Shown here: positions 108 through 45,489 of the stretch, one piece after another | Position numbering within the stretch: position 1 is the first letter of the stretch | Layout: each line of letters opens with the position of its first letter | Assembly: GCA_003220435.1 (NCBI GenBank) | Contig: QHSL01000070.1 | Coordinates: 5,511-69,510 of the forward strand | Length of the DNA stretch: 64,000 nucleotides | Source of the DNA: Candidatus Rokuibacteriota bacterium | Lineage (GTDB): Bacteria; Methylomirabilota; Methylomirabilia; Rokubacteriales; CSP1-6 | Direction of reading: 5' to 3' | Notes under the pieces: model-generated | What the model was told of the DNA's origin: nothing | Database searches by the model: none | The model's input: only the letters and a program-made list of their open reading frames with translations | Translations under genes and position numbers: made by a program

Positions 108-1589
108 TCACGCGTCTCGGGCGATCGCGCGCGCCGTCTCGGCGGCGCGCCGGTTGCTCGCGCACACGAGGGCGCCGAGATCACGCAGCGTCTTCTCTTG
201 CCGTCCGAGGCCTTGCGGGTCGTCGTCGGTCCCGACGACGTGCGCGACGACGCTGAGCGCCCGGCCTCCGCGCTGCGCACGCTCGCGCGCCTCCGCGAGC
301 GCCGATCCGACCGCGGCGGCGGGATCGGGGTGGGCGCAGTCGCCCAGAATCAGGTCCAGGAGCAACACCGACACGGTCGGATCGTCGCCCGCCTCGACGA
401 TCGCGGCGTTGCGGCGACTCGGATCGATGATCGGGTGCGGCCGCCCGCGCGTGAACTCCTCGGCGCCGAAGTCCACGAAGTCGTGTGGGGACCCGCCGAC
501 GATGCGGCGCGCCTCGTCGCAGAGCGTGCCGCCCGCGTAGAGGCCGCGCACCGCGCCGCGCGTGCCGCCCCTCGCGACCGGCGCCGGGCCATCGAGGTCG
601 ACGACCGCGCCGCCCGCGAGCATCACCGCGGCGGCGGCCGCTTCCTCGAGCGTCGTCACCGCGCGGACGCCGCCCGGCACCGCTCCGTCGTAACCGAGCA
701 GGCAAGCCACCACAGGCTTCTTCGTCTCGACCGCGGCCCTGAGCACGATGTCGGCGACGGCAGGCGACGCGGGCTTGGAGACGATCAGCACCGCGCGCGT
801 GGACTCGTCGGCGGCGAGCCGCTCGAGGGACTGGAGCGTGGTGGCGCCGCCGACGGCGGCCTGGAGGTCGCGGCCGCCGGTGCCGATCGCGTGGGAGACG
901 CCGGCGCCGAGGCGATGGATGAGGCACGTCACTTCCTGGATACCGGTGCCGGAGGCGCCGACGATCCCGATCGATCCGCGGCGCACGCGGTTCGCGAACC
1001 CCAGGCCCACGCCGTTGATGATCGCGGTGCCGCACTCGGGTCCCATGACCAGCAGGCCGCGCTCGTGTGCGCGGTGTTTCAGCGCGACCTCATCGTCGAG
1101 CGACACGCCGTCGCTGAAGAGGAACACGTGGAGGCCGCTCGACAGCGCCTGATGGGCGTCGAGGACCGCGTAGGCGCCGGGCACCGCGATCAGCGCCACG
1201 TTCGCCGACCCGCCACGGGCGGCGGAGGCGGTCGTGCGCGGCGGCGCCGCCACCCATCCGGCTGCCCCCGTGTCGCGGCCGGCGCTCAGCAGCTCCTCCA
1301 CGCACGCCAGCGCGCGGTGAGCCACCGCCTCGCTGCTCGCTCTCACCGCCACGAGCAGATCGGAGGACTCGCCCGCCGGCGCCTCCGCCGGCCACATCGC
1401 CGCCTGCGCCAGCATCGAGCGGCCGGTCGCCGTTCCCATCACGACGGCGACTTCGGTTACGCCCGCCAGCTGGCGGGCCTGCTCGGCGACACGCATGAGG
1501 TCGATCGAATCGAAGTACGAGTTCGGTCTGACTTTCCAGGATAGGTGCACGCTCGGTCCCCCGCTCGCCGCCGTCGTCGATCGTCGCAT
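108..1589 (-). CDS. FdrA-like protein (CoA-binding, acyl-CoA synthetase / succinyl-CoA synthetase alpha-like fold). Start uncertain: the ORF extends to 1706, and an internal Met at 1589 aligns better with FdrA N-termini.
   Basis: 532-aa ORF in the track. The motifs VAVVMGTATG, HVFLFSDGVSLDDE and LLVMGPECGTAIINGVGLGFAN resemble FdrA/YcdF-type proteins as I recall them. Stop at 108-110. Confidence 0.55.
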   Translation of the reverse strand: MRRSTTAASGGPSVHLSWKVRPNSYFDSIDLMRVAEQARQLAGVTEVAVVMGTATGRSMLAQAAMWPAEAPAGESSDLLVAVRASSEAVAHRALACVEELLSAGRDTGAAGWVAAPPRTTASAARGGSANVALIAVPGAYAVLDAHQALSSGLHVFLFSDGVSLDDEVALKHRAHERGLLVMGPECGTAIINGVGLGFANRVRRGSIGIVGASGTGIQEVTCLIHRLGAGVSHAIGTGGRDLQAAVGGATTLQSLERLAADESTRAVLIVSKPASPAVADIVLRAAVETKKPVVACLLGYDGAVPGGVRAVTTLEEAAAAAVMLAGGAVVDLDGPAPVARGGTRGAVRGLYAGGTLCDEARRIVGGSPHDFVDFGAEEFTRGRPHPIIDPSRRNAAIVEAGDDPTVSVLLLDLILGDCAHPDPAAAVGSALAEARERAQRGGRALSVVAHVVGTDDDPQGLGRQEKTLRDLGALVCASNRRAAETARAIARDA

Positions 1590-1656
1590 TATAGCCAGTC
1601 GGCGATCGATAAACGGGCGGGAGTGTTCGGCGCCCTTGCTACCATCGACGAACAGG

Positions 1657-2712
1657 ATGCCCGACGCGAGCCCGCCCCTGGTCAGCATCTGCGTTCCCAC
1701 TCGCAACGGGGCGCGCTATCTCCGGGAATGTCTCGAGAGCGCGCTCGCCCAGACCTTCGGGCAATTCGAGCTCCTGGTCGTGGACGACGCCTCGAGTGAC
1801 ACCACCGTCGCCGTCGCCACCGATTTCGCGCGCTCCGATGCGCGCGTCCGCGTCCATGAAAATCCCCAACGTCTCGGGCTCGTCGGCAACTGGAACCGGT
1901 GCGTCGAGCTGGCGCGTGGTGAATGGCTCAAGTTCTTGTTCCAGGACGATTGGCTGGATCGCCACTGTCTCACGCGCCTGCTGGATGCCCCCGTGCCCGG
2001 CGTTCTCCTCGTCGCGTGTCGTCGGGCGTCCTGGTTCGACTCGACGGTGCGCCCCCAATTGAGGGGCGACTACGAGCGGTACGTGGCGGAGCACAATCTG
2101 CCCCGGCGATTCCCGGGCCGGTCCATCATCGAGGCCGAGGCGTTCGCGGAGCACATGGTCGATTTTCCCCTCGACAACTGCATCGGTGAGCCCACCGCGA
2201 CCTTGATCCACGCCGACGCGTTCCGACGGTACGGGCTGTTTCACCCGCACCTCGTACAGCTGGGGGATTGGGAGCACGCGGCGCGCGTCGCGCTCCAGAA
2301 CGGCCTTTGCTACGTCGACGCTCCTCTGGTAACGTTCAGGCTGCATGGCGCATCGACCACGGCGGTCAGCTGGTCGGCGCGCAGCTACCGAAGAGACGTG
2401 ATCGATCCGCTCTTGATCCTTCATGAGGTCGTCTACGCGCCGACCTATCGGTCAGTCCGTGACGCTGCGGCGCGCCGCACGCCGCCGATCGAGTTGTCGC
2501 AGCGCCTGCACGAGGCGGTCGATCGCGCCCACGGCCGGGCGCGCGACGGTCGGGACCTCGCCGAATGGCGAGACGCCGTTCGAAATTATCCGCGGCTCCT
2601 GTCGGGGCCGCCCACGCACCGGCTCCGACGCTGGCTCAAACGCTCGGCTCCGACGTCGCTCCTGTCCCTGGGGCGGCGCGTACGGAAGCTCCGTCCGCGT
2701 CATCCCGACTGA
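1657..2712 (+). CDS. Glycosyltransferase family 2.
   Basis: Translation from ATG 1657 begins PLVSICVPTRNGARYLRECLESALAQTFGQFELLVVDDASSD, a typical GT2 N-terminus with a DxD region. TGA at 2710-2712. Divergent from the FdrA-like gene. Confidence 0.75.
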   Translation: MPDASPPLVSICVPTRNGARYLRECLESALAQTFGQFELLVVDDASSDTTVAVATDFARSDARVRVHENPQRLGLVGNWNRCVELARGEWLKFLFQDDWLDRHCLTRLLDAPVPGVLLVACRRASWFDSTVRPQLRGDYERYVAEHNLPRRFPGRSIIEAEAFAEHMVDFPLDNCIGEPTATLIHADAFRRYGLFHPHLVQLGDWEHAARVALQNGLCYVDAPLVTFRLHGASTTAVSWSARSYRRDVIDPLLILHEVVYAPTYRSVRDAAARRTPPIELSQRLHEAVDRAHGRARDGRDLAEWRDAVRNYPRLLSGPPTHRLRRWLKRSAPTSLLSLGRRVRKLRPRHPD

Positions 2713-2732
2713 GCGACGAGGCTGGACGGCCC

Positions 2733-4121
2733 GTGCTCTTCAATAGCCTGCGGTTCCTCTATGTCTTCCTCCCCATCACCTATGCAGGCTTCTGGCTGCT
2801 GCATCGCAAGACGCATCGCTACTTCTGGCTGGCGCTGACGGGATACCTCTTCTACGCTTCCTGGAACTACAAGTTCTGCGCCTTGATGGCGTTCTCCACC
2901 GCCGTCGCCTATCTGGCCGGCCACGGGCTGCTTCGATGGCAGGGCCCGCGTCTGCGCCTCCTGTGTCTCGTCGTGCCGGTCACGGCGGATCTGGCGCTCC
3001 TCGGGTTCTTCAAGTACTGGAATTTCGCGGTCGACAACGCCAACCACGCCACGGCGTGGCTGGGGATTCCCGCCGCGCTGCCCCTGTTCGACATCGTCTT
3101 GCCGGTCGGCATCTCCTTCTACACGTTTCACACCGTCACCTATATCGTCGACAGCTACCGGGGCCTGATCAAGCCGACCCGCAACGTCTTCGAGTTCGCC
3201 TGCTACGTCTCCCTGTTCGCTCAGCTGGTGGCCGGCCCGATCGTCCGATTCCGGCAGATCGAAGGGGACCTCGATCGCATCGACCGCGTCGATCGACGGA
3301 ACGCGCTGAACGTCGCGTGGTCGTTCTTCGCGATCGGGCTGGCCAAGAAGGTCCTGCTCGCCGACTCGATCGCCGCGATCGTCAATCCGGCGTTCCTCCG
3401 ATACGAGGACCTCGGGACCCTCGGCACGTGGGCGTGCATGCTCGGCTACACCTATCAGCTCTATTTCGATTTCTCGGGGTACAGCGACATGGCGGTCGGC
3501 CTCGGATACCTCTTCGGCCTGCGGCTGCCCCAAAACTTCAACTCGCCGTACAAGGCGCTCGACCCCGCTGACTTCTGGCGTCGCTGGCACATCTCGCTTT
3601 CGTCGTTCCTCCGGGACTACGTCTACATCCCGCTCGGCGGCAGCCGGTGCTCGCCCCTGGCCGCCAACCGCAACTTGCTCGTGACGATGCTGTTGGGTGG
3701 CCTGTGGCACGGCGCCAACTGGACGTTCGTCGTGTGGGGCGGTTATCACGGGGTCCTGCTGGTCCTCCATCGCCTCGTGCACGAGCCCTGGGACAGGCTC
3801 TCGCCCTTCGCCAGACGACTGACGACGTTCGTCCTGGTCGTCGTGGGCCTGGTCTTCTTTCGCGCCGGCGACTTCACGATGGCCGCGACGATGTTGCAGC
3901 GCATGTTCGTCTGGCACTCCGGGGCCGCGCCGGTCGGTGGCGAGACACTCGTCGTTCTCCTCGGCGTCGCGGCCGTGCTGGCCCACGTCGGCCCGAACAC
4001 GTTCGAGCTCGATCACGCGTGGTCGGCCCCCGCCGTCGCGGGGCTGGCCCTCTTGTTCGTGCTGTGTCTGGTCTCGATTGCCGGCTTCGAGGTCTCGCCG
4101 TTCCTCTACTTCCAGTTCTGA
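2733..4121 (+). CDS. MBOAT-family membrane-bound O-acyltransferase (AlgI/DltB-like polysaccharide O-acetyltransferase). A GTG start is proposed at 2733; the long ORF 2565-4121 overlaps the upstream gene.
   Basis: Multi-pass hydrophobic protein with MBOAT hallmarks (FYTFHTVTYIVDSYRG, LGGLWHGANWTFVVWG; conserved His). A GAGG lies 14 bp upstream of GTG 2733. Confidence 0.8.
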   Translation: MLFNSLRFLYVFLPITYAGFWLLHRKTHRYFWLALTGYLFYASWNYKFCALMAFSTAVAYLAGHGLLRWQGPRLRLLCLVVPVTADLALLGFFKYWNFAVDNANHATAWLGIPAALPLFDIVLPVGISFYTFHTVTYIVDSYRGLIKPTRNVFEFACYVSLFAQLVAGPIVRFRQIEGDLDRIDRVDRRNALNVAWSFFAIGLAKKVLLADSIAAIVNPAFLRYEDLGTLGTWACMLGYTYQLYFDFSGYSDMAVGLGYLFGLRLPQNFNSPYKALDPADFWRRWHISLSSFLRDYVYIPLGGSRCSPLAANRNLLVTMLLGGLWHGANWTFVVWGGYHGVLLVLHRLVHEPWDRLSPFARRLTTFVLVVVGLVFFRAGDFTMAATMLQRMFVWHSGAAPVGGETLVVLLGVAAVLAHVGPNTFELDHAWSAPAVAGLALLFVLCLVSIAGFEVSPFLYFQF

Positions 4122-9489: not shown

Positions 9490-10398
9490 CTAGACCGTGT
9501 CCATGAACGTGCGCTCGACGCGCGTGAACAGCATCAGGCCGACGGCGAGCAGCGCCAGCATCGCGCCGAAGCTGGCCAGGAGCTGCGTGAGGCTGGCGGA
9601 GCCGACGCCGAGAAAGCCGAGGCGGAAGCCCTCCATCACCGGCGTGAGCGGATTGAGCAGCAGCGCCCACCGGAGGCGCTCGGGCACCGCCGACAGGGGA
9701 TAGATGACCGGGGTGGCATACATCAGCAGCTGGACCCCAAACGTGATCAACTGCCCGAGGTCGCGGTAGCGGGTCGTCAGCGCGCACACGACGATGCCGC
9801 CGCCCAGGGCGTACCCCGCCAGCAACAGGAGAAACAGGGGCGTCAAGAGCGCCCATGCCGTCAGGCTCAGCGGCGCGCCGGAGACGACGTGGGCGCCGAG
9901 GAAGACGAGGAAAATGCCGAGCTGGATCGCGAAGGAGATCAGACTGGAGATGACCACGGAGATCGGAAGGACCAGACGATGAAAGTACACCTTCCCGAGC
10001 AGCCCGGCGTTCCACACGAACGTCCGGGCAGTGCTGGTCAGCGAGCCGGCGAAATAATTCCACAGCACAGTGCCCGCCAGGTAGAAAAGGAACGGCGGCG
10101 CCCCGTCGGTCGGCAGCGCCGCCAGCGTGCCGAAGACGATCGTGAACGTGAGGGTCGTGAGCAGCGGTTGAACGACGTGCCACGCGGGCCCCAGGATCGT
10201 CTGCTTGTACATCGATACGAAATCACGCCAGACGAACAGGCTGATCAGGTCCCGATAGCGCCACAGCTGGCCCAGGCGCCAATCGAACCAGCCGCGGTGA
10301 GGCGAAATGACCGTGGCGGCGCCCGCGGCGCGTTGCCCCTCACCGCGCGCACGCAGGGTCCCGCCCCTCTGGCGACTGTCCGCGACCACGTTCACCAC
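9490..10398 (-). CDS. wzm: Wzm: ABC-2-type polysaccharide export permease.
   Basis: Six-TM hydrophobic protein with a WRYRDLISLFVWRDF N-terminal motif typical of Wzm/KpsM/TagG permeases. Directly upstream of wzt. Confidence 0.85.
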   Translation of the reverse strand: MVNVVADSRQRGGTLRARGEGQRAAGAATVISPHRGWFDWRLGQLWRYRDLISLFVWRDFVSMYKQTILGPAWHVVQPLLTTLTFTIVFGTLAALPTDGAPPFLFYLAGTVLWNYFAGSLTSTARTFVWNAGLLGKVYFHRLVLPISVVISSLISFAIQLGIFLVFLGAHVVSGAPLSLTAWALLTPLFLLLLAGYALGGGIVVCALTTRYRDLGQLITFGVQLLMYATPVIYPLSAVPERLRWALLLNPLTPVMEGFRLGFLGVGSASLTQLLASFGAMLALLAVGLMLFTRVERTFMDTV

Positions 10399-10613
10399 AG
10401 ACGGATCATCACGAAGCCGCGCTGCTGGAGCTCGTCGTAGACGTCACGCCGCTCGCGCCGCGCCGGGCCGCTCGCGGCGCCGGGATCCGCGCCCGGCGGA
10501 GCGATGCGACGGTCCAGCAGCACCTTGATGTCGGGCATGCCCGCGAAGACGGTCTCGAAATAACTGAGCAGATCGGGGCGGTCACGCGCGACCACGACGA
10601 TGACCCGCAGCAT
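10392..10613 (-). CDS. Small hypothetical protein (73 aa), possibly translationally coupled to wzm; paralogue of the 10781-11047 ORF.
   Basis: ATG 10613 is preceded on the minus strand by a GGGGGAG Shine-Dalgarno 4 nt upstream. Its stop overlaps the wzm start by 7 bp. Shares the motif pattern hhhVxRxDxxLxxYhxxxFxxxxxhxVhLDRRxxxxG...RRxhxxELxxxGFVhhxL with the divergent neighbour. Confidence 0.45.
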   Translation of the reverse strand: MLRVIVVVARDRPDLLSYFETVFAGMPDIKVLLDRRIAPPGADPGAASGPARRERRDVYDELQQRGFVMIRLW

Positions 10614-10700
10614 CAGTCTCCCCCGTCAGAAAACTTTCCAATTGGACCGTGGCCCTTGCGGGATCCACGAGAAAGCACGGAGTTTCAACATCTTCTGAAA

Positions 10701-10715
10701 TGGCACCGCATATGC
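10701..10715 (+). promoter_or_regulatory. Candidate sigma-54 (-24/-12) promoter: TGGCAC-N5-ATGC.
   Basis: aaaTGGCACcgcatATGCTcg has a perfect -24 TGGCAC, exact 5-nt spacer and the GC of the -12 element. The predicted start site is ~55 nt upstream of ATG 10781. Confidence 0.3.
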
Positions 10716-10780
10716 TCGTGTCCGATTCAATGCGTCCAGCAAGCACGGAACCTCACGTTCGACGGCTGCTCGAGGGCCAC

Positions 10781-11047
10781 ATGGCTCGGCATCTGTTCCT
10801 CGTCTCGCGCCACGATGCTCGTCTCTATGAGTATCTGGTCGATCGGTTTCGGGACGATAGAAACGTCGAAGTCATCCTCGATCGCCGTCACATCGAGCGC
10901 CGGGGCCGAACGCACCCGCCCGCGTACGTAGGCGGCGATCGCCGGCGCGGCGACCGCCGGACTCGGCGCGAGCTCGACCTGGAGCTCAAGGTCCGGTCTC
11001 ACGTGATCCTGACGATCCCCGACGCCGACACCCCTCCCCATTTATAG
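10781..11047 (+). CDS. Small hypothetical protein (88 aa from ATG 10781; ORF opens at 10649/10700), paralogue of 10392-10613.
   Basis: HLFLVSRHDARLYEYLVDRFRDDRNVEVILDRRHIERRG and RRELDLELKVRSHVILTIP parallel the motif order of the divergent small ORF. A GAGGG sits 4 nt before ATG 10781. TAG at 11045-11047. Confidence 0.4.
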   Translation: MARHLFLVSRHDARLYEYLVDRFRDDRNVEVILDRRHIERRGRTHPPAYVGGDRRRGDRRTRRELDLELKVRSHVILTIPDADTPPHL

Positions 11048-11048
11048 C

Positions 11049-11220
11049 CGCGCCTCGGCCGGCGGGGCCCCAGCCCCGCGACGGCCTGCAGCGCGTACTT
11101 TTCCAGAGTCGCACCTCGGCTGGCGGGGCCCCAGCCCGCGACGGCCTGCAGCGCGTACTTTTCCAGAGTCGCACCTCGGCCGGCGGGGCCCCAGCCCCGC
11201 GACGGCCTGCAGCGCGTACT
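11049..11220. repeat. Tandem direct repeat of ~60 bp: 2 full copies plus 1 truncated copy, each carrying a GC-rich hairpin.
   Basis: Copies at 11049-11109, 11110-11169 and 11170-11220 (cgcacctcggcYggcggggccccagccc(c)gcgacggcctgcagcgcgtacttttccagagt). Each contains the inverted repeat ggccgGCGGGGCcccaGCCCCGCgacggcc. It fills the whole gap between the convergent small ORF (stop 11047) and the TPR-protein gene (stop 11227). Confidence 0.9.
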
Positions 11221-11226
11221 ACGGTC

Positions 11227-14200
11227 CTAGGACGCGCCGAGCTCGCGCAGCACACGGCGCGCCTCGACGGCATCGGTAGATTTCTCGTCCAGCTGGAGCG
11301 AGCGCCTCAGCGACACGATCGCATCCTCTTTCTTCCCGAGCTGGTAGTAGGTCATCCCCAGGTGATGGTGGACCGGCGCGATCCGCGCGCCGAGCTCGGC
11401 CGCCCGCTTGAGGATCGGCTCCGCCTTCGCGTACTCCCCGCGCTGGTAGTACACGAAGCCGACGGTGTCGAGGACCGACGCGGAATTGGGCGCGGCCTCC
11501 TGCGCGCTCAGCGCCAGCGTCAGCGCTTCCGCGAGGTTCTGGGTCCGCGACGCGTAGATCCACGCGAGGTTGTTGAGCACCGCCGCATCCTTTGGATTCA
11601 GGCTCTGCGCCTTCCGATAGGAGGCGATCGCCCGGTCGACCTCGCCCTTCCGCTCGTAGGCGTTCCCGAGCAAGAAGTGGGCGGGCGCGTGACCGGGCTG
11701 CAGGGCGACCACGGTGCTCAGCGCGTCGGTCGCCGGCTGGAGATTGCCGCGCTGGAGCTGGAGCTGGCCGATGATGTAGTGCGCCGCCGCCAGCTTGGGC
11801 TGGCGGGCGACCGCGTCCTTCGCGAGCGCCAGCGCTTCGTCGAACCGTCCGGCCTGCGCTTTCAGGCTGGCCAGCCGTAGCTTCAGGTCCACGTTGGGCG
11901 GGCTCACCCGGTGGGCCGTGTCGAGGTGCTGGATCGCCGCCTCGACGTTGCCCTTGCGCTGGTGGTAATCGCCGAGCAGCAGGTTCGCCTGGAGATTCTC
12001 AGGCTCCGAGCGCACGACCGCCTTGAGGTAGTCGGCCGCCTCCTCCGCCTTCTTGTCGTGAAGACGCAGCAGGCCCATCGCGAGGTTGGCCGGAACGAAC
12101 GTCGGCGCGACCTCGAGGATCCGCCGGTACTCGGCTTCGGCTTCCGCTCGCTGGCTCCGGGCCAGGTACGCCCGCGCCAGCGCGTTGCGGACGGCGACGT
12201 TGCTCCCATCCTTCTCGAGCGCGGTCTTGAGCTCGCCGATCTGCTCGACCAGCAGCGCATCGTCTGGCTTCTGGCCCGACAGCGCCGCCATCTCGATCCG
12301 GATCCCCTTGGTGTCGGGCGCGAGCTCGAGGGCCTTTTGGTACGATCGCCGCGCGCCGTCCAGGTCGCCCCGCGCGAGCAGCGCGCGCGCGCGGTAGTAG
12401 TGGCCCGCCGCGATGTTCGGATTGATCTGGTTCACCTGATCGAACTGCGTGATCGCCTCTGCGGTGTTGTACTTGCCGAGGTAGGCGAGGCCGAGGAGGA
12501 TCCGCGGCTGCACGGAGCCTGGATCGCCGGAGACCACGGGCGAGAGCAAGCTCACCGCGTCGTCGTATCGGGCTCGCTTGATATAGAGGTGGCTCAGCGC
12601 CAGGGTCAGCTCGCGCGCTGGGGGCGTGGCCTTGATCGCCGGCTCGAGGACCGCGATCGCCTGGTCGAACCGGACGTGCGCGGCGTGAACGCTCGCCAGT
12701 GTGAGCGCGGCGGCGACGTCGGCCGGCCGATCAGTCAGGATCCGCTGGAGCTGCGCGACCGCTTCACCCTCGCGCTTCCCGGTTAGCAGCAGCCGGGCCA
12801 GGGCGAAGCGCGCGGGCGCGAACCGCTCGTCGACTGCGATCGCGCGCTTGAGCTCCTCCTCGGCCTTCTTCTGGTCACCCTTCTTGTCGTGGAGCGCGGC
12901 CAGCGTCAGGATCAGCTCGGGGTTCTTCGGGTCGGCCTTCAGCGTGGCCTGCAGCGCGGCAAGCGCCTCGTCGGTCCGGTTCTGCTGGACGAGCGTGGCG
13001 ACCTTCGCCCGCAGCGCGGGCACGTATTTCGGGTTCGCCCGGAGCGCCGTCTCGTATTCCCGGAGCGCATCCTGGGGCTTCTTCTCGCTGTTGTAGACGT
13101 TTCCGAGCGCCAGCCGCCCGGGCGCGAAGCTCGGATCGACCTCGACCGCCCTCGCGTACATGTCCTCGGCGCGCTTGAGGTCGCCGCGGGCGACGTAGAT
13201 CGCCCCGAGCACTCCGTAGGGCTGCGCGCTCTGGGGCATGAGCCCGGTGGCGGTCTGGGCCGACTTCACCGCCCGGTCGAAATCTCCGAGCCGGAGATGC
13301 GCCCGAGCCACTTGCAGATGGTACTCGCCGACCTTCTCCATCGGCCTGGTGATCGCGTCGAACTCGCGAAGCGCCTCGCGCGCGCGACCACCGGCCAGGT
13401 AGGCGCCTCCCAGGCCGTAGCGGAAGAGGGGGTTGTCGGGGGCTCGCGCCACGATCGCCTGAAATTCGACGACCGCATCGTCGACCCGGTTGAGCCCAAC
13501 GAAGGCGTGCGCGAGCAAGTAGCGCACGACCGGCGTGTCCGGCAACGACCGGGCGAGCGGCCGCAGGGCCAGGATCGCCTTCTCGTACTCCTGGGCCCGG
13601 ACGTAGTACCCCCCCAGGACGACCACGACGCGCGGCGACCATGCCTGACGCGGCAGGGTTTCAAGATCCTTGATCGCGTCAAGGAGCCGGCCGTCCACGG
13701 CGTGGAGCTCGCTGGACGCCAGGGCGACTTTCGGGCTCTGCGGAGCCACCACCTTCGCCTGATTCACGACTTCGCGGGCGGCATCGCGCTGGCCCTGACG
13801 CAGCAGCAGCCCGGCGAGCCCGATCAGTGCGTCGGGATATTTCGGCCTCTCGACGAGTGCGTCGCGATAGGCCTTCTCGGCCTCCGCCAGGCGCCCGAGG
13901 ATCGCGAGGGAGTCGCCTAGAGCCCGCTGGACCTCAGGCGTCCCGGGACCGCGCGCGAGAGCCTTCGACAGTAGCGCCGCCGCCTGCTGGGCGTCTCCCT
14001 GGCCGTTGAGCACGGCCCCCCTCACGTAGAGCTCCGCCGCGCTCTCGGGAGCCTTCGCCCGGATCGCGTCGGCCTGCTCCAGCGCCGCGTTCCATCCCTC
14101 GAGGTCGAGGTACGACTGCGCCAGGTCGGCGCGCGCCTCGAGATTGTCGGGCTGCAACTCGACTGCCCGCTGGAACTCCCGCATGGCGTCGACGTTCCAG

Positions 14201-14427
14201 GACTTGGCGCGATACGCGCGGCCCATCGCGTGGAGAGCGGGCGCGAATTTCGGATCGATCTGGAGAGCGTTTTTCAGCTGAAGGATCGCCTCGTTGTACT
14301 TGCCTTCGGTGTGGTACTTGATCCCCCGCTCCAGATATTGCTGCTTCTTCACGTTCGGGTCCTGAGTGCAGGCCCCGAGCATCAGCGCGCACAGCAAGCA
14401 CACCTGGAGACGGCGGCGCGTCCTCAT
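11227..14427 (-). CDS. prsT: PEP-CTERM-system TPR-repeat lipoprotein (PrsT-like), ~1067 aa.
   Basis: Start trimmed to ATG 14427 (MRTRRRLQVCLLCALMLGACTQ: signal peptide plus lipobox LGAC), with a GAGAGGA Shine-Dalgarno 6 nt upstream. The entire protein is tandem TPR repeats (AxxxYxxAxxxxP pattern), as in the TIGR02917-type protein found with exosortase A loci. Confidence 0.88.
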   Translation of the reverse strand: MRTRRRLQVCLLCALMLGACTQDPNVKKQQYLERGIKYHTEGKYNEAILQLKNALQIDPKFAPALHAMGRAYRAKSWNVDAMREFQRAVELQPDNLEARADLAQSYLDLEGWNAALEQADAIRAKAPESAAELYVRGAVLNGQGDAQQAAALLSKALARGPGTPEVQRALGDSLAILGRLAEAEKAYRDALVERPKYPDALIGLAGLLLRQGQRDAAREVVNQAKVVAPQSPKVALASSELHAVDGRLLDAIKDLETLPRQAWSPRVVVVLGGYYVRAQEYEKAILALRPLARSLPDTPVVRYLLAHAFVGLNRVDDAVVEFQAIVARAPDNPLFRYGLGGAYLAGGRAREALREFDAITRPMEKVGEYHLQVARAHLRLGDFDRAVKSAQTATGLMPQSAQPYGVLGAIYVARGDLKRAEDMYARAVEVDPSFAPGRLALGNVYNSEKKPQDALREYETALRANPKYVPALRAKVATLVQQNRTDEALAALQATLKADPKNPELILTLAALHDKKGDQKKAEEELKRAIAVDERFAPARFALARLLLTGKREGEAVAQLQRILTDRPADVAAALTLASVHAAHVRFDQAIAVLEPAIKATPPARELTLALSHLYIKRARYDDAVSLLSPVVSGDPGSVQPRILLGLAYLGKYNTAEAITQFDQVNQINPNIAAGHYYRARALLARGDLDGARRSYQKALELAPDTKGIRIEMAALSGQKPDDALLVEQIGELKTALEKDGSNVAVRNALARAYLARSQRAEAEAEYRRILEVAPTFVPANLAMGLLRLHDKKAEEAADYLKAVVRSEPENLQANLLLGDYHQRKGNVEAAIQHLDTAHRVSPPNVDLKLRLASLKAQAGRFDEALALAKDAVARQPKLAAAHYIIGQLQLQRGNLQPATDALSTVVALQPGHAPAHFLLGNAYERKGEVDRAIASYRKAQSLNPKDAAVLNNLAWIYASRTQNLAEALTLALSAQEAAPNSASVLDTVGFVYYQRGEYAKAEPILKRAAELGARIAPVHHHLGMTYYQLGKKEDAIVSLRRSLQLDEKSTDAVEARRVLRELGAS

Positions 14428-14468
14428 CGACAGTCCTCTCGCGACGTACTGCGGCTTCCACTTCTTGG

Positions 14469-14484
14469 GCAATTGGGATGCCAA
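14469..14484 (-). promoter_or_regulatory. Sigma-54 promoter for prsT: TGGCAT-N5-TTGC.
   Basis: The minus strand reads gcTTGGCATcccaaTTGCcc, with exact -24/-12 spacing. The predicted start site is ~30 nt upstream of the prsT ATG. Three sigma-54 enhancer-binding proteins are encoded in the window. Confidence 0.55.
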
Positions 14485-14756
14485 GCCTAGCACCTTCCTT
14501 CTCGGTTTCCGGTCGGAACTCTTTCTTCAGGTGTTCAACATCTGATCAGCGAGGTGGACAGTGGAGGAGTGATGTCAATTATTTGATTCAGTGCACTTTT
14601 TACCACGTCGGCCCCGGCAGTGACCGAGAACCGTGGCAAAATCCCGGCCATACGCCGACGCCACGCAAATGCTGCCACGCCGCAAAATATGCAAGGGAAC
14701 CGAAGGGTTGGGAAGCGCAGTTCCCTTTGGTACTCGCCTTGCTCGATCCTCAGCTC

Positions 14757-16163
14757 GTGAACCAGAGCTCTCTCGTCTCGCTAGTCGTGGATCCCGAGCC
14801 ATCCTCCGCGCAAACGCTGGCGGAGATGCTCGGCCAGATCGGTTGTCAGGTGCTCAGGACCGCGACCGGGGCCGAGGCGCTCGAGCGGTTTCACTCGGCG
14901 CTGCCCTCGCTGATCTTGCTCGACCTCGACATCGCCGACATTCCGGGCCGCCATCTGCTCCGCCACTTCCGCAGCTATGCGGAGCAGACGCCGATCATCG
15001 CTCTGGCGCGTCGAGTCGACGTCCGGATCGCCGTCGAGGTCGTGCGCGCCGGCGCGACCGAAGTCGTCGAGAAGGGAATCAGCCGGGACAACCTTCGCCT
15101 CGTCCTCAAAAAGGTGCTGCCGGCGGCGATCGCGACTGGACGCCGGGAGGCCCCCGACCGGGCCCGGGTCCTCTTCTTCTCGCGGTACGAGGGGCTCTTC
15201 CGGCGCAGCGAGCGGATGAAAGCCGTGGAGACGCTCGTGGTGCGCGTCGCCGACACCGACGGGCCCGTCCTGATCCAGGGCGAGCCGGGCACCGGCAAGG
15301 AGCTGGTGGCGCAGGCCATCCACCACCTTTCCAGCCGATCGGGCAAGGCCTGGCAGCGAGTGAACTGCGCTTCGCTGCCGGGCGACCTGCTCGAGTCCGA
15401 GATCTTCGGCTACGAGGGTGAGGCGCCAGCGAACATGCCGGTCCGCCAGCCCGGGAAGCTCGACCTCGCCGACGGCGGCACGCTGCTGCTCGACGAGATC
15501 GGGGACCTTCCACCGGTCCTCCAGGCGCGGATCGTCCATCTGCTGCAGGACGGTCAGTTCTTCCGCGCCCGGGGACGCGAGCTGATCAGCACCGGCGTTC
15601 GCCTGCTCGCAACCACCGTCAAGGACCTCAAGGCCATGGCGATGGCCCACGCGTTCAGCGAGGATCTGTCTCGCTTGCTCGGCGTCGTCAACATCGTGGT
15701 CCCGCCCTTGCGGGAGCGACGCGAGGAGATCCCGCTCCTGGCCGACCATTTCCGCGTCCGGTTCGCCGGCGAGTTCAACCGACCGCAGCCGAAGCTCTCG
15801 AGCGAAATTCTGGAATTGCTCTCCGCCTACGACTGGCCGGGCAACGTCCGCGAGCTCGAAAGCCTCGTGAAGCGGTGGATCGTCCTCGGCGACGACTCGC
15901 ACGTGAAGGAAGATCTCCAGTCGCGGTTGCGGGCGAGAGGGGCGAACGGCAAGCCGAGGCCCCCGTCGGCCGACGACGTCGGTCTCCGAGAGGTCGGGCG
16001 CCGAGCGGCCCGAGCGGCCGAGCAGGCGGCGTTGCACGAGGCGCTGGCGCGCGTGGGCGGCAACCGCGCGGCGGCGGCCCGTCTGCTCAAGATCAGCTAC
16101 AAGACGCTGCTGCAGAAGCTGAACGCGGGAAAGCGCGCCAAACGCCTCGGCGGGCACGGGTGA
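14757..16163 (+). CDS. Sigma-54-dependent response regulator (REC + AAA+ sigma-54 activator + Fis-type HTH). Start uncertain: GTG 14757 proposed; the ORF opens at 14478.
   Basis: REC-like N-terminus (SLVVDPE...LILLDLDIADIPG), then GEPGTGKE Walker A, GAFTGA-like ESEIFGYEGEAP loop, R-finger region and C-terminal HTH (GGNRAAAARLLKISYKTL). Divergent from prsT. Confidence 0.75.
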   Translation: MNQSSLVSLVVDPEPSSAQTLAEMLGQIGCQVLRTATGAEALERFHSALPSLILLDLDIADIPGRHLLRHFRSYAEQTPIIALARRVDVRIAVEVVRAGATEVVEKGISRDNLRLVLKKVLPAAIATGRREAPDRARVLFFSRYEGLFRRSERMKAVETLVVRVADTDGPVLIQGEPGTGKELVAQAIHHLSSRSGKAWQRVNCASLPGDLLESEIFGYEGEAPANMPVRQPGKLDLADGGTLLLDEIGDLPPVLQARIVHLLQDGQFFRARGRELISTGVRLLATTVKDLKAMAMAHAFSEDLSRLLGVVNIVVPPLRERREEIPLLADHFRVRFAGEFNRPQPKLSSEILELLSAYDWPGNVRELESLVKRWIVLGDDSHVKEDLQSRLRARGANGKPRPPSADDVGLREVGRRAARAAEQAALHEALARVGGNRAAAARLLKISYKTLLQKLNAGKRAKRLGGHG

Positions 16164-16255
16164 TGGGGGCCCAGCCGGGTCGGGATGTCCGGGCGAACAG
16201 CCTCTTGATTGGAACGCGGCGCCCTGTCAATATCGTAGGGCTGCGGAGGGCAGCT

Positions 16256-17656
16256 GTGCACGTCACCATCGTCGACGAAACCATGACCGTAGGTGAAGCC
16301 GCCCATCGAGTGCTGTTCTCGATGGGCGTGAAGACGACGTTCGCGGGCTCGCTACACGAGCTGCCGCTCGTGCTCGAGGCGAGCGGCGTGCCGGACCTCG
16401 TGATCGTGAATGTGACCAACGACGTGACGGGCTGGGAGGTCGCGGCCCGGACGCAGCGCGCCGGCTATCAGGGCCGGCTGCTCGCGTTCGTCGACGGGCT
16501 CGACGATCCGCGGACGCGCTACCTGACGCAGCTGCCGAGGGTCGAGTGCGTGGTGCGGCCAAGCTCGCACGCCCTGCTCGAGGACATCGTGAGAAAGGCC
16601 GTTCCGGAGCCGGCGCTGACCCCGGCGCGATCGCTGCCTCCGCTGCCCGCGTCCGCCTATCACGGCATCATCGGCCACTCGCCCCAGATGCATGACATCT
16701 TCTCTCGCATCGACAAGGTGGCGTCCGGCGACGTGAACGTTTGCATCCACGGCGAGAGCGGCACCGGCAAGGAGCTGATCGCGCGGGCGATCCACTACGC
16801 GAGCCCCCGTCGCGACCGTCCCCTCATTACGCTCGATTGCACCACGATCCCGGACGGGCTGATGGAGAGCCACCTCTTCGGGCACGTCAAGGGCGCCTTC
16901 ACCGGGGCGACGGAGCATCGCGAAGGTGTCTTCGCGCTGGCCCACACGGGGACGCTGTTCATCGACGAGCTGGGCGAGCTGAGCCCGCGCCTGCAGGCCA
17001 AACTGCTGCGTGTCATCCAAACGCGCGAGTTCTCGAAGGTGGGCGGGTCCAAGTCCCTCCGGACCGACATCCGGCTCATCACGGCGACGAACAAGGACCT
17101 CAAGACGGCCGTTGCGCAGGGCACGTTCCGCGAGGACCTCTACTACCGCGTGGCGGTCTTCATGATCAAGGTTCCAGCGCTGCGCGAGCGGACCGAGGAC
17201 ATCTCGCTTCTTGTCGAGCATTTCCTCCAGCGGTTCGCCACGCTCTACGGGAAGCCGATCACGAAGGTGGCGCCGTCGACGCTCGAGCGCATGACGTTGC
17301 TGCCGTGGCCCGGCAACGTCCGGCAGCTGGAGAATTTCCTGGAGCAGGCCGTCGTCCTCGCCGAGGGCGACACGCTCACCGACCGGGATCTTTTCGCCGG
17401 AGACTTCGCGAGTGCCGCCGTCAGCGCCACGGCCAACCCAGCGCTGTCGGGACAGTTCGAGCCGGGCCTACCCCTCAGCGAGGTGGAGCGGCGCCACATC
17501 CTTCGCACGCTGCAGAAGGTCCACGGCAACCGCACCGAGGCAGCCCGGCTCCTCCAGATCAGCGTGCGCTGTCTGCAGTACAAGCTGAAGGCCTACGGCC
17601 GGGAGGTCAGCGCGGCGCCCGGGTCCAGCCGGAGTCTCGTCCCCAGCACCTCCTAA
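16256..17656 (+). CDS. Second sigma-54 enhancer-binding protein with a degenerate receiver-like N-terminus. GTG 16256 proposed, with GGAGGG 5 nt upstream; an alternative ATG 16163 overlaps the upstream stop.
   Basis: GESGTGKE Walker A, GAFTGA motif (HVKGAFTGA), a sigma-54 interaction domain and a C-terminal HTH (HGNRTEAARLLQISVRCLQ). The N-terminal domain has N in place of the phospho-acceptor Asp (DLVIVNVTNDVTGWE). Confidence 0.8.
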   Translation: MHVTIVDETMTVGEAAHRVLFSMGVKTTFAGSLHELPLVLEASGVPDLVIVNVTNDVTGWEVAARTQRAGYQGRLLAFVDGLDDPRTRYLTQLPRVECVVRPSSHALLEDIVRKAVPEPALTPARSLPPLPASAYHGIIGHSPQMHDIFSRIDKVASGDVNVCIHGESGTGKELIARAIHYASPRRDRPLITLDCTTIPDGLMESHLFGHVKGAFTGATEHREGVFALAHTGTLFIDELGELSPRLQAKLLRVIQTREFSKVGGSKSLRTDIRLITATNKDLKTAVAQGTFREDLYYRVAVFMIKVPALRERTEDISLLVEHFLQRFATLYGKPITKVAPSTLERMTLLPWPGNVRQLENFLEQAVVLAEGDTLTDRDLFAGDFASAAVSATANPALSGQFEPGLPLSEVERRHILRTLQKVHGNRTEAARLLQISVRCLQYKLKAYGREVSAAPGSSRSLVPSTS

Positions 17657-19176: not shown

Positions 19177-19193
19177 CCCGCAATGTTTGCGGG
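19177..19193 (+). terminator. Possible weak intrinsic terminator hairpin after the beta-barrel gene.
   Basis: cccgcaa-tgt-ttgcggg is a perfect 7-bp stem, but the T-rich tract (gttttg) lies ~15 nt downstream, so this is not a canonical terminator. Confidence 0.25.
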
Positions 19194-19227
19194 GTCGTCC
19201 GCGCAAGTTTTGTAGCGCGTCGTCGAC

Positions 19228-19638
19228 ATGACCAGGCCTGCACCCTCCGAAGTGCTTGCAGCACGGCGAGTTATGGCGTTGGCCTGGTTCGTGCGTGTTT
19301 CGCACGCCGCATTGAAGCCCAGTCCTCAGTCCGGTAAGGCGACGGCGATTCGCGATCTCCTGGCGCACGACCCGGTGTGCCTCGAGATCGCGCTCTACCT
19401 CGCGCGCAACAGCGAGGCCGCCGACACCGCCCGGGGCATCGCGGAGTGGTGGATCGGTCGGAACCTCGCCTCCACCCAGGAGGCGCTGCTGAAGCTCCAG
19501 GCATGCGGCGTCGTGCAGGCGTTCGCCGTCCAGGACCACACGTTCGTGTACGCCTACACCAAGAACCCCAACCTGAGGCAGTCGATCGCTCGCCAGTTGC
19601 GCGGCGTTCTGGCGCTCCACCCGTCGAGGGGACTCTAG
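19228..19638 (+). CDS. Small hypothetical protein (136 aa), possibly winged-helix-like; start uncertain.
   Basis: It fills the gap between the beta-barrel gene and the sugar-transferase gene with no competing ORF. The last two-thirds show coding-like high GC at third positions. I recognise no family. Confidence 0.45.
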   Translation: MTRPAPSEVLAARRVMALAWFVRVSHAALKPSPQSGKATAIRDLLAHDPVCLEIALYLARNSEAADTARGIAEWWIGRNLASTQEALLKLQACGVVQAFAVQDHTFVYAYTKNPNLRQSIARQLRGVLALHPSRGL

Positions 19639-42554: not shown

Positions 42555-43414
42555 TGCACCTGGCGTCGCTCGGGCGGGGGCTCCGGCTGGGCGCGGCCGT
42601 CGCGCTGGCGGCGCTCTATGCGCCGGCGATGGCCGCGCTCGTCCACGTCTGGCGCACCGACACGTACGCCGGCCACGGGATGTTCGTGCCGCTCTTCAGC
42701 GCGGTCATCGCCTGGACGGAGCGTGACCGGCTGGGCCGGGCGGCCGGGCGCGGCCATCCGGCCGGCGCCGCGATCGTCCTGGGCGGCCTCGGTCTGCTGG
42801 CGCTCGGCACCGTGGCGGACAGCGTGCTGCTCCAGGGGGTCTCGGTGGCCGTCGCGATCGCCGGCCTCGTCGCGTGGAGCTTCGGCCTACGCTGCCTGCG
42901 CGCGGCAGCGTTCCCCATCGCGTTCCTGCTGCTGATGTCGCCGCTGCCGCGCACGGTCGTCGCGGCGGTCACGCTCCAGGTCCAGCTCTTCGCGGCCGCC
43001 TTTGCGGTCGGCGTGCTGCGGCTGCTCGACCTGCCCGTTTACCAGAGCGGCGTCACGATCGAGCTGCCCTCGATGACGCTGCAGGTCGCCGAAGCGTGCA
43101 ACGGCCTGCGCTTCCTCGTGGCGCTGCTGGTGCTGACGGCGGCGTTCGCGCAGATCACGCAGCGGACCGTCGCCGACAAGGCGGCGCTGGTGGTCGCGGC
43201 GATCCCGATCGCGGTCCTCGCCAACGCGATGCGCGTGGCCGCCATCGTGCTTGGGGTCCAGTACGTGGGCCCGGAGGCGGCCAGCGGCACGATTCACAAC
43301 TGGATCGGCAAGGGCATGTGGGGGCTCACGCTCGTTCCGCTGGTCGGGCTCGGCTTCCTGCTCGCGCGGCGCTCCTCGCCGAAGGTCGGGCCGCTCGAGG
43401 AGGGTATCGCGTGA
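42554..43414 (+). CDS. xrtA: Exosortase (XrtA/EpsH-type transpeptidase), stand-alone without an EpsI domain.
   Basis: 286-aa polytopic membrane protein with hallmark exosortase motifs: conserved Cys (VAEACNGLRF), Arg (ANAMRVAA) and HNWIGK near the C-terminus. ATG 42554 overlaps the upstream TGA. Confidence 0.85.
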   Translation: MHLASLGRGLRLGAAVALAALYAPAMAALVHVWRTDTYAGHGMFVPLFSAVIAWTERDRLGRAAGRGHPAGAAIVLGGLGLLALGTVADSVLLQGVSVAVAIAGLVAWSFGLRCLRAAAFPIAFLLLMSPLPRTVVAAVTLQVQLFAAAFAVGVLRLLDLPVYQSGVTIELPSMTLQVAEACNGLRFLVALLVLTAAFAQITQRTVADKAALVVAAIPIAVLANAMRVAAIVLGVQYVGPEAASGTIHNWIGKGMWGLTLVPLVGLGFLLARRSSPKVGPLEEGIA

Positions 43415-45489
43415 GCGCGACCCTGCTCGCCTTCGTCCTGGCGGCGGCTACGAGCCTCGGGCTCGCCGGGCTGGCGGTGGCCCGGCGACCGCGCGGCGCG
43501 CTCCGCTGGAGCTTCGCGGGAGGCATGGCGGGGTTCGCGGTCGAGTCGATCGCCGCCCTCGTTCTGGTGACGCAGACCGACGCGCCCGATGAGCGGTTGC
43601 TGTGGCTCAAGGTCACCGAGGTCGCGGGGCTCCTGCTCCTGGCGCCGTGGTCCGTCTTCGTCGCGTCGCTGGCGCGTCCCGACGGCCCGGAGCTCTCGCG
43701 GGGCTTCCGCGCCGGTCTCGGGGCGCTCGCGTGCATCGTGACGGCGAGCGCGGCGGCCGTCGCGTATCTGCCCGCGTTCCAGATCGCGGACGTGGTCGGG
43801 CCGTTCCACGCGGCGCGGCTGGACATCCCGGCGCGGGTGTCGGTGCTCGTGCAGCTGGTGGGCACCGTGGTCCTCCTGGCCGGGCTCGAGGCCGCGCTGC
43901 GCACCTCACGGCGCGACGCGCGCTGGCGCATCAAGTACCTGGTGCTGGGTCTGGGCGGCGTGCTGCTCGCCCGCTTCTACTTCATGAGCCAGGTGGCCCT
44001 CTTCAACGTCGAGATGGCGAGCTTTCTCATCACCGGCGCCGCCATCCTGGTCATCGGCAACGTCGCGATCGCGACCTCGATGACGCGGGACCGGCTCGGC
44101 GTCGCCCTGTCGGTGTCGCGCCAGGTGCTGTACCGCTCGGTCGTCGTCGGCGCGCTCGGCGTGTACCTGTTCGCCGTCGGCGTGCTCGGCTGGCTGCTCA
44201 ATTGGCTGGGCATCGGCGAGGAGCTGTTCTTGGGCTCCGTGATCGTCTTCGTCTCGGCGCTCGGGCTGGCCGCCGTGCTGCTCTCCGAGGCGGTGCGCTG
44301 GCGCGTGAAGCGCTTCGTCGCCCGGAACTTCTACCGGAGCAAGTACGACTACCGGGCGCAGTGGGTCAACTTCACCAAGCGGCTGGGCTCGCTGGTGACG
44401 CTCGACGAGCTGGCGCCGCAGCTCCTGTCCACCGTCGTCGAGACGGTCGGCGCCGCCGCGGGCCTTCTGTATCTGCGAGAGGCCGGCAAGGCGTGCCACC
44501 ACGCGACCGCCGCGGTTGGCGCGCGGCGGCCCGTCGCGACGCTCGCCGACGCCCACCCACTGATCGCGTCGCTCGGGGCGCGCCGGGCGCCGCACGTGCT
44601 CGAGAACGGCTGGGCCGGCGCCCTGCTCGAGTCGCCGACTGCGGCCGCGTTTCCGGAGGGATCGGTGCTGGTCCCGCTGCGCTGGCGCGACGAGCTGGCG
44701 GGCTTCCTCCTGATCGGAGGGGAGCAGACTGGCGTGCCGTACACCAGCGAAGACCTCGAGTTCATGGAGACCGTGGCCGAGCAGGCGGTCGGCGCCATCG
44801 TCACCACGCGGCTCTCCGAGAGCCTGGCCCGATCGCGCGAGTTCGAGGCGATCCATCGACTGACGTCGTTCGTGATCCACGACCTCAAGAACTCGATCTC
44901 GGCGCTCTCGATGCTGAGCGAGAACGCGCTCAAGAACTTCGACGACCCCGAGTTCCAGCGCGACGCGCTCCGGACGGTCGTCAAGACCGTGGACCGCATG
45001 ACGGCGCTCCTCGGGCGCCTCAGCGGGGCGCCGGAGGCGGCCCGGCTTCGCCTCGAGGTCGTCGACCTGGCGGCCCTGGTGCTGGACGCGGCGCGACCGA
45101 CCGTCCGGAGCGACCGGATCGCGCTCGTCAAGGAGCTGGCGCCGCTGCCGATCTCCGCCGATCCCGAGGCCCTCTCGAAGGTGATCCAGAACCTCGTCAC
45201 CAACGCCGTGCAGTCGATCGAGGGCCAGGGCACCGTGACCCTGCGCACCTTCGTCGACGGCGGCTGGGCCGTCTTCGCGATCACCGACACCGGCTGCGGC
45301 ATGTCCGTGGAATTCGTGCGCCGGTCGCTGTGGGCGCCGTTCCACTCCACGAAGAAGGGCGGCTGGGGCATCGGCCTCTACCAGGCCAAGGGCATCGTCG
45401 AGGCTCACGGCGGCACCATCGACGTGGCGAGCCGGGAAGGGGCGGGCACCACGTTCTCGATCAAGCTTCCGATCGGAGAGGGAACATGA
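43411..45489 (+). CDS. prsK: PEP-CTERM-system sensor histidine kinase (PrsK-like).
   Basis: GTG 43411 (GAGGAGGG Shine-Dalgarno) overlaps the xrtA stop. ~8 N-terminal TM helices, a GAF-like middle region, an H-box (IHDLKNSISALS) and HATPase motifs (NLVTNAVQS, DTGCGM, GWGIGL). Confidence 0.85.
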   Translation: MSATLLAFVLAAATSLGLAGLAVARRPRGALRWSFAGGMAGFAVESIAALVLVTQTDAPDERLLWLKVTEVAGLLLLAPWSVFVASLARPDGPELSRGFRAGLGALACIVTASAAAVAYLPAFQIADVVGPFHAARLDIPARVSVLVQLVGTVVLLAGLEAALRTSRRDARWRIKYLVLGLGGVLLARFYFMSQVALFNVEMASFLITGAAILVIGNVAIATSMTRDRLGVALSVSRQVLYRSVVVGALGVYLFAVGVLGWLLNWLGIGEELFLGSVIVFVSALGLAAVLLSEAVRWRVKRFVARNFYRSKYDYRAQWVNFTKRLGSLVTLDELAPQLLSTVVETVGAAAGLLYLREAGKACHHATAAVGARRPVATLADAHPLIASLGARRAPHVLENGWAGALLESPTAAAFPEGSVLVPLRWRDELAGFLLIGGEQTGVPYTSEDLEFMETVAEQAVGAIVTTRLSESLARSREFEAIHRLTSFVIHDLKNSISALSMLSENALKNFDDPEFQRDALRTVVKTVDRMTALLGRLSGAPEAARLRLEVVDLAALVLDAARPTVRSDRIALVKELAPLPISADPEALSKVIQNLVTNAVQSIEGQGTVTLRTFVDGGWAVFAITDTGCGMSVEFVRRSLWAPFHSTKKGGWGIGLYQAKGIVEAHGGTIDVASREGAGTTFSIKLPIGEGT

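Follow-up and report, generated by a model that had tools for sequence, protein, structure and literature searches.

The question raised by this locus is how transcription of prsT, a gene for a tetratricopeptide repeat (TPR) lipoprotein of the XrtA/PEP-CTERM system, is switched on in a member of the Rokubacteria. The DNA analysed is a 64,000-nucleotide stretch, hereafter the window, of a Candidatus Rokuibacteriota bacterium (assembly GCA_003220435.1, contig QHSL01000070.1, positions 5,511 to 69,510), and the region at issue is the intergenic DNA from 14428 to 14756, which separates prsT on the minus strand from EBP1 and EBP2, 2 genes for enhancer-binding proteins (EBPs), on the plus strand (Table 1). 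A preliminary description of the window had placed a sigma-54 promoter directly upstream of prsT and had seen in it a link between the EBPs and the exopolysaccharide (EPS) locus. That proposal finds support in the statistics of the motif, in phylogenetic footprinting, and in the architecture of the upstream DNA. Our reading, to which we give a probability of about 0.8, takes the element for a functional promoter of the enhancer-dependent sigma-54 class, P(prsT), that would transcribe prsT as a monocistronic unit from about position 14457.

The gene itself belongs to the PrsT family by its score over the curated cutoff, by a lipoprotein signal, and by its PEP-CTERM/EPS context; the protein begins at ATG 14427 with MRTRRRLQVCLLCALMLGAC, a lipoprotein signal peptide with the lipobox LGAC. 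Upstream of it the minus strand reads ...gctaggcTTGGCATcccaaTTGCccaagaagtggaagccgcagtacgtcgcGAGAGGActgtcgATG, in which the GG at 14482-14481 and the GC at 14470-14469 stand at the canonical GG-N10-GC spacing of sigma-54 promoters. The core is close to consensus, intergenic, on the correct strand, and 41 nt 5′ of the prsT ATG. The sequence and spacing given in the preliminary description, TTGGCAT-cccaa-TTGC on the minus strand with exact -24/-12 geometry, are borne out to the base (14483-14469), and its GAGAGGA Shine-Dalgarno (14440-14434) and the ATG some 30 nt past the predicted start (~14457) lie where it had put them, giving a predicted prsT leader of ~30 nt. The sigma-54 consensus with which such elements are compared is reportedly that of Barrios et al. 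1999.

How readily such an element could arise by chance is a matter of counting. The window has a G+C content of ~69%, and 3,594 of its 64,000 bases (5.6%) are intergenic. TGGCAYN5TTGC occurs twice, against 0.06 matches expected, and none of 100 shuffles reached 2; the looser TGGYAYN5WTGC occurs 4 times, against 0.28 expected, in each case in intergenic DNA and oriented toward a nearby gene start. Scaled from the window expectation of 0.06, the chance of finding TGGCAYN5TTGC on the right strand within the 100 nt 5′ of prsT is ~5e-5. Significance was taken from these exact-pattern shuffles and from conservation, and a rough sigma-54 position weight matrix was used solely to list candidates; as a measure it was set aside as non-discriminating, P(prsT) scoring 13.8 bits against a mean maximum of 13.4 in random 64-kb sequences. 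That score does speak for the view that the element is a chance or vestigial match and that prsT is read from another promoter of the sigma-70 type, with TTGGCA, for example, as its -35 box. The pattern expectations run the other way, no -10-like hexamer stands at 16-18 nt, and a sigma-70 promoter scan of the region returned no match on the prsT strand; a chance origin strikes us as very improbable. As an internal control, one of the 4 looser matches, the near-perfect sigma-54 site TGGCAC-TTCGC-TTGC (63788-63802, minus strand), lies 5′ of a gene for a receiver (REC)-ANTAR response regulator, behind which come urtABCDE and urease genes, an operon that is likely nitrogen-controlled. A site in this nitrogen-regulated setting suggests that the sigma-54 consensus of this organism is the canonical one.

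The second line of evidence is conservation. Retrieval of relatives gave 1 genome locus and 26 metagenome loci, the closest genome match being a Candidatus Rokuibacteriota metagenome-assembled genome (MAG) with 84% PrsT identity and contig Ga0066710_100045757 being identical at 100%, and the alignment comprises the 10 loci that share the intergenic region, at PrsT identities from 100% down to 69%. CTTGGC.T...(A/C)TTGC is invariant in all 10 of these Rokubacteria loci, and the core was also found in L008 and L021. Its flanks have been far less stable, with a 10-nt deletion on its immediate upstream side and, between core and Shine-Dalgarno, insertions of 7 to ~30 nt, and invariance in spite of such indels is a further argument against a chance match. 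Mean column conservation of the 15-mer is 0.94, against 0.77 for the whole intergenic region, of which it is the second most conserved spot. Conservation might also reflect translation, either of a PrsT extended N-terminally from GTG 14493 or of a plus-strand open reading frame (ORF) running from ATG 14478 into EBP1, and mechanically both ORFs crossing P(prsT) exist. Both are excluded by the relatives, in which the stretch is broken by indels of 10 nt, 7 nt, and 1-2 nt and by in-frame stops; moreover, the G+C content of third codon positions is not coding-like between 14430 and 14750, and the lipoprotein signal starts exactly at ATG 14427, with a conserved Shine-Dalgarno before it. We give a coding explanation next to no weight. 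An Rfam scan of 10300-15000 yielded zero matches at E<=1, and hence no known RNA element accounts for the conservation. A candidate hairpin (AAGGGAAC/GTTCCCTT) was dropped, as it is not retained in the relatives.

Beyond the alignment, in L032, L040, and L033, sites of the same kind recur 5′ of prsT in altered form. L032 and L040 (~50% PrsT identity) carry CGGTAC-N5-TTGC, the two differing in the spacer only, and a Tectomicrobia MAG (48% PrsT identity) has TGGCAA-GCCCC-TTGC, 64 nt before the ATG. The putative -24/-12 variants of L032/L040 and of Tectomicrobia are independent, in 2 more distant clades, and their occurrence at the same place is likewise hard to reconcile with a chance match. L012 (61% PrsT identity) has another arrangement, in which TGGTAC-N5-TTGC comes first, then a 37-aa ORF with its own Shine-Dalgarno, and then prsT. 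That ORF (1934-2038, plus strand) is a PEP-CTERM sorting signal and nothing else (MPVISVPEPSVIVLLGAACLGLWWLARRARRRK...). With this putative promoter, L012 bridges the PEP-CTERM-gene and the prsT promoter arrangements, and we speculate that loss of an L012-like PEP-CTERM-signal ORF brought the promoter next to prsT.

The third line of evidence lies upstream of the core. Classical enhancer-dependent promoters of the NtrC/NifA type, such as glnAp2 and nifH, are laid out as an upstream activator site (UAS), a site for integration host factor (IHF), and the -24/-12 element. P(prsT) resembles them in its GG-N10-GC spacing, its TGGCA and TTGC cores, its tandem upstream dyads, and an IHF-consensus site between dyads and promoter. 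Conservation in the intergenic region peaks in the block at 14659-14700, a candidate UAS, which lies at about -202 to -243 relative to P(prsT) and at -54 to -95 relative to P(EBP1), the putative divergent promoter considered below. Its dyad pattern, GCANNNTTTGCG (GCA-N3-TTTGCG), has 3 matches in the window against 0.30 expected; all are intergenic, and all lie either in the prsT/EBP1 intergenic region or 5′ of the -24/-12-like site at 19280. Related palindromes, such as GCAAAGTTTGC and GCGCAA-CTT-TTGCGC, are found 90-155 nt 5′ of the prsT sites in L032, L040, and L033. Within the 64 kb, AATCAAATAATTG alone matches the IHF consensus WATCAANNNNTTR, with 0.02 matches expected, and its core, AAT...TTGA, is largely retained in relatives. 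Closer to P(prsT) than the IHF-type site lies another conserved block, the near-palindrome TTCCGACCGGAA, of which the word TTTCCGGTC is present twice in L012. The 17-bp dyad TGATCA-N5-TGAACA was rejected as a regulon marker, no second copy being found in the window. Of the upstream activator sites, with or without IHF, that attend sigma-54 promoters, this region offers candidates in its conserved dyads and its unique IHF-consensus match. P(prsT) differs from NtrC promoters in that its dyads are unrelated in sequence to the NtrC site, generally known as TGCACC-N5-GGTGCA, and in that the host is uncultured.

The same intergenic DNA holds a second -24/-12-like site, TGGTAC-TCGCC-TTGC, which faces the EBP1-EBP2 operon. 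It is conserved in 9 relatives (L001, L007, L012, L013, L014, L016-L019), down to 57% PrsT identity, with changes confined to the spacer or to -21. That TGGTAC-N5-TTGC at 14728 instead encodes the N-terminus of EBP1 (LVLALL) was ruled out by L014, where a stop codon and a 2-nt indel fall between the site and the EBP1 receiver frame; hence the site is non-coding. A conserved GTG at 14757 lies ~3 nt past the predicted divergent start, from which we infer a near-leaderless mRNA, and autoregulation of the EBP1-EBP2 operon is possible. The sole sigma-70-like match of the region, TGGACA-16-AATTAT (14555-14582, plus strand), sits in the A+T-rich middle of the intergenic DNA, points toward EBP1, and may supply basal expression of the activator operon. 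A second pairing of dyad and -24/-12-like site precedes g15 and epsB2. In L011 its dyad at 19180 and its site at 19280 are both conserved and the sequence between them has diverged; the site is possibly a promoter for export/biosynthesis genes.

Which protein would activate P(prsT)? The preliminary description had counted 3 sigma-54 EBPs, 2 of them divergently adjacent to prsT and the third PrsR. All 3 are there, the first 2 in tandem and divergent from prsT, and all have a sigma-54 AAA+ domain and HTH_8. The count of activators does not hold for EBP1, which lacks the GAFTGA loop: the position reads FGYEGEAPANMP and is degenerate in every EBP1 ortholog. GAFTGA is treated as essential, and the GAFTGA-less proteins TyrR, DhaR, HupR, and VpsR do not act via sigma-54 (PMC3162934, PMC6158489). 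Only EBP2 (GAFTGA) and PrsR (GAYTGA) look able to engage sigma-54; EBP1 is predicted to be unable to do so, and we expect of it a modulating rather than an activating role, through competition for sites or in mixed oligomers. In L001 and L021 a clean internal deletion has removed the REC domain of the ortholog. EBP1 also evolves faster than EBP2. In its REC-AAA+-HTH_8 organization and degenerate sigma-54-contact loop it resembles VpsR, which controls Vibrio polysaccharide genes (PMC6158489, PMC3162934); unlike VpsR, TyrR, DhaR, and HupR, it appears to be co-transcribed with a GAFTGA-bearing paralog beside sigma-54 promoters.

That paralog, EBP2, is the most likely activator of P(prsT), a choice that we would put at even odds. 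It is favoured by its intact GAFTGA, retained in the orthologs within a segment of 90-100% identity, and by its conserved position: an EBP2-type gene divergently adjoins prsT in 9 of the 9 aligned relatives that keep the promoter, including L011, which has no EBP1. The same divergent adjacency is seen in L012, L013, L032, and L040, and in L012, L032, and L040 the EBP2-type gene stands beside the -24/-12-like sites. The N-terminal ~165 aa of EBP2 contain no recognisable receiver, and the homologs of L032 and L040 have no N-terminal domain at all. PrsR is the main alternative and stays a serious rival, both as a bona fide family member, forming with PrsK the canonical PEP-CTERM two-component pair, and because of L033, where dyad and promoter are present and no activator gene lies within 3.5 kb. 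A distal activator, PrsR for instance, would account for the L033 arrangement just as readily.

A broader alternative takes P(prsT) as real and assigns it to the PrsK/PrsR regulon, as the Rokubacterial counterpart of the PEP-CTERM box, with phospho-PrsR on the dyads and EBP2 reserved for other targets. As described by Haft et al. 2006 (PMC1569441), the PEP-CTERM box lies 5′ of PEP-CTERM genes and consists of a 17-nt motif 1 that ends in TTTACA (the predicted PrsR site), a spacer of 32-92 nt (mean 63), and a sigma-54 -24/-12 motif; the same work named PrsK, PrsR, and PrsT through a phylogenetic profile, linked them to an activator site plus sigma-54 motif, and found the box in Proteobacteria only. 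The parallels are considerable. P(prsT) likewise combines a sigma-54 promoter with a conserved upstream site of activator type, in an exosortase/EPS locus that encodes PrsK, PrsR, and PrsT, true family members scoring over cutoff (TIGR02916, TIGR02915, TIGR02917), together with an exosortase (TIGR02602). Moreover, the ~89-nt gap of the 19180/19280 pair falls inside the 32-92 nt of Haft et al., the homologous region of L012 would drive a PEP-CTERM-signal ORF and then prsT, and L033 has its dyad and promoter without an adjacent activator. The differences begin with the upstream word, which at P(prsT) is GCA-N3-TTTGCG and not ...TTTACA: motif 1 was sought 32-92 nt 5′ of the -24 element, and no such word occurs in the window's prsT upstream sequence. 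The nearest dyad (14664) is ~175 nt from the -24 element, beyond the range of Haft et al. The target is prsT, PEP-CTERM ORFs of any length being absent from the 64-kb window, and only the relative L012 has a PEP-CTERM target. P(prsT) thus lacks 3 defining features of the PEP-CTERM box, namely, the motif-1 word, the spacing, and the PEP-CTERM target gene. In addition, it lies in Rokubacteria, with an extra tandem activator pair beside the promoter, and the conserved neighbour of prsT across 2 clades is EBP2, not PrsR. On balance, membership in a PrsK/PrsR regulon is a possibility to be kept in mind, if an unlikely one. Within the body of papers searched, none pairs Rokubacteria with PEP-CTERM.

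Several observations weigh against P(prsT) as a sigma-54 promoter of prsT, or at least confine it to some lineages. The preliminary description called the promoter strong, which is more than sequence can tell, and the core is off consensus at -21 (T), -20 (C), and -11 (C). The gene for sigma-54, rpoN, does not lie in the 64-kb window, and its presence is implied only via the activator genes. The dyads are ~200 bp from P(prsT) and merely ~55-95 bp from the divergent site, and so may serve mainly that promoter, and the lack of an adjacent activator gene in L033 belongs here as well. In L009 and L020 (75-76% PrsT identity) the element has been destroyed by a deletion that runs from -22 to the Shine-Dalgarno and leaves TTGACA in its place; since prsT is presumably still expressed there, these 2 loci lend something to the sigma-70 alternative. 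In L020 an 853-aa secreted-protein gene (1088-3649) is inserted between EBP2 and prsT, and L009 has the same upstream sequence. No -24/-12 site precedes prsT in L039, L034, or L035, and L013 has none either, or none that is clear. The prsT loci of Nitrotoga, Nitrosospira multiformis, and Sedimenticola have no -24/-12 site in the 330 nt upstream, from which it follows that sigma-54 control of prsT is not general. Finally, there is Aquincola tertiaricarbonis RN12, the one organism with an experiment on this point, in which prsT is required for flocculation/floc formation (PMC9850573). There the start of pepA maps to a -24/-12 promoter, TGGCAC...CTGCTT, and needs RpoN1, and transcription of the downstream prsT is unaffected by disruption of rpoN1 (PMC9850573). 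The mapped pepA start and the box of Haft et al. are, for their part, published precedents in favour of the sigma-54 reading of P(prsT). An RpoN-independent prsT could again be cited for a sigma-70-type promoter; it also implies that the wiring of prsT is lineage-specific, not general. Both systems have a sigma-54 promoter in the prsT neighbourhood, which in Aquincola drives the upstream pepA; P(prsT) directly precedes prsT.

Some of these loci have further sites or genes in the vicinity of prsT. Strong -24/-12 sites adjoin prsT in Nitrosospira/Nitrotoga (L037 6018-6035, plus strand; L036 8329-8346, minus strand), where they serve neighbouring genes of the FeeM/acetyltransferase type. In L042 a -24/-12-like site (2286-2303, minus strand) precedes a PEP-CTERM gene divergent from prsT, and L009 has a PEP-CTERM protein gene convergent with prsT.

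If the sigma-54 reading of P(prsT) is right, the mechanism would run as follows. A 330-bp control region would be shared by P(prsT) and by the divergent -24/-12-like promoter that faces the EBP1-EBP2 operon and probably also serves the long plus-strand EPS cluster behind it. Sigma-54 RNA polymerase would sit on TGGCAT-N5-TTGC as a closed complex, and an activator hexamer would bind the 2 GCA-N3-TTTGCG dyads some 200 bp upstream. With a bend in the DNA at the IHF-type site (around -125), the GAFTGA loop of the activator would touch sigma-54, and ATP hydrolysis would open the promoter. A bolder version, which we find rather doubtful, puts 14428-14756 at the centre of an “EPS box” regulon of Rokubacteria type, unlike the proteobacterial PEP-CTERM box. 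Here the receiver-less, GAFTGA-bearing EBP2 would read a CGCAA-N3-TTGCG-like enhancer and switch on divergent sigma-54 promoters ahead of prsT, its own operon, and the g15/epsB2 export genes, with 2 of the promoters giving GTG/TTG-initiated mRNAs that have almost no leader. EBP1, with a receiver and no GAFTGA, would be a phosphorylation-controlled brake or gate. If true, this would be a split of sensing and activating between 2 paralogs, not described for PEP-CTERM systems.

The setting of prsT is a polysaccharide locus of ~48 kb. To the left of the gene lie the Wzm/Wzt exporter, sugar-modifying enzymes, and glycosyltransferases, and on the plus strand the order is EBP1, EBP2, a TIGR03016-like outer-membrane protein, g15, EpsB_2, a Wzc-like kinase, and an export protein; further plus-strand genes encode many glycosyltransferases, the exosortase, PrsK, and PrsR. 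Directly after the prsT stop there are 2.8 tandem copies of a 60-bp G+C-rich unit (11049-11220, 95% matches), each copy holding the palindromic stretch GGCCGGCGGGGCCCCAGCCCCGCGACGGCC; the array could be a terminator or an element like the repetitive extragenic palindromic (REP) sequences. Past the repeat comes a small gene convergent with prsT, an ORF (10781-11047, plus strand) for an arginine-rich 88-aa protein without a family match, divergently adjoined by a similar 73-aa ORF (10392-10613, minus strand). The 88-aa ORF is preceded by TGGCAC-CGCAT-ATGC (10701-10715, plus strand), a site retained in L001, L007, L008, and L021 with differences confined to the spacer.

Table 1. Features of the prsT control region and associated loci; positions are those of the window unless a relative is named.
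Feature	Position	Strand	Basis or remark
prsT, XrtA/PEP-CTERM system TPR lipoprotein, 1066 aa, apparently monocistronic	11227..14427	-	TIGR02917, 470 bits (cutoff 312)
Shine-Dalgarno GAGAGGA	14434..14440	-	6 nt 5′ of ATG 14427; GAGAGG kept in relatives
Predicted +1 of prsT, ~14457	14455..14459	-	geometry only, from C(-12) at 14469
-24/-12 core of P(prsT), TGGCAT-CCCAA-TTGC	14469..14483	-	sequence, rarity, conservation
Near-palindrome TTCCGACCGGAAACCG, about -46 to -61	14503..14518	-	conserved
Imperfect 17-bp dyad TGATCA-GATGT-TGAACA, about -75 to -91	14532..14548	-	conserved; unique in window
IHF-consensus site AATCAAATAATTG, about -119 to -131, between dyads and promoter	14576..14588	-	consensus match
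Block with 2 GCA-N3-TTTGCG dyads (14681-14692, 14664-14675), candidate enhancer (UAS)	14659..14700	-	conservation 0.95
Divergent -24/-12-like site TGGTAC-TCGCC-TTGC, facing EBP1-EBP2 operon	14728..14742	+	pattern match, conservation
EBP1: REC, sigma-54-type AAA+, HTH_8; no GAFTGA	14757..16163	+	Pfam; start at GTG 14757 inferred
EBP2: sigma-54 AAA+ with intact GAFTGA, HTH_8; candidate activator	16163..17656	+	Pfam, loop sequence
Second dyad-promoter pair: dyad GCAATGTTTGCG (19180-19191), ~89 nt, TGGCCT-GGTTC-GTGC (19280-19294)	19180..19294	+	before g15 (TTG 19312), epsB2
prsK	43411-45489	+	TIGR02916, 407 bits (cutoff 300)
prsR, GAYTGA loop, rival activator	45486-46847	+	TIGR02915, 592 bits (cutoff 503)
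Deletion of -24/-12 element in relatives	L009 about 2900-2955; L020 about 3940-4000		

The result is incremental. PEP-CTERM systems were already known to be under sigma-54 control (Haft et al. 2006), and what is new is the uncultured phylum and the different target gene; an ordinary kind of promoter appears in a new place, and the understanding of sigma-54 or of exosortase systems is unchanged. It does correct the number of activators to be considered, since one of the 3 “sigma-54 activators” is predicted to be unable to contact sigma-54. Moreover, the biochemical function and regulation of PrsT are poorly understood, and P(prsT) provides a defined cis-element that can be mutated, together with a few candidate activators, for prsT in the Rokubacteria, an abundant, uncultured soil phylum. 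For the biology of the family, the finding suggests that the TPR lipoprotein gene, and possibly the EPS export genes as well, come under the sigma-54 logic known from proteobacterial PEP-CTERM genes, with the wiring and the upstream site both altered.

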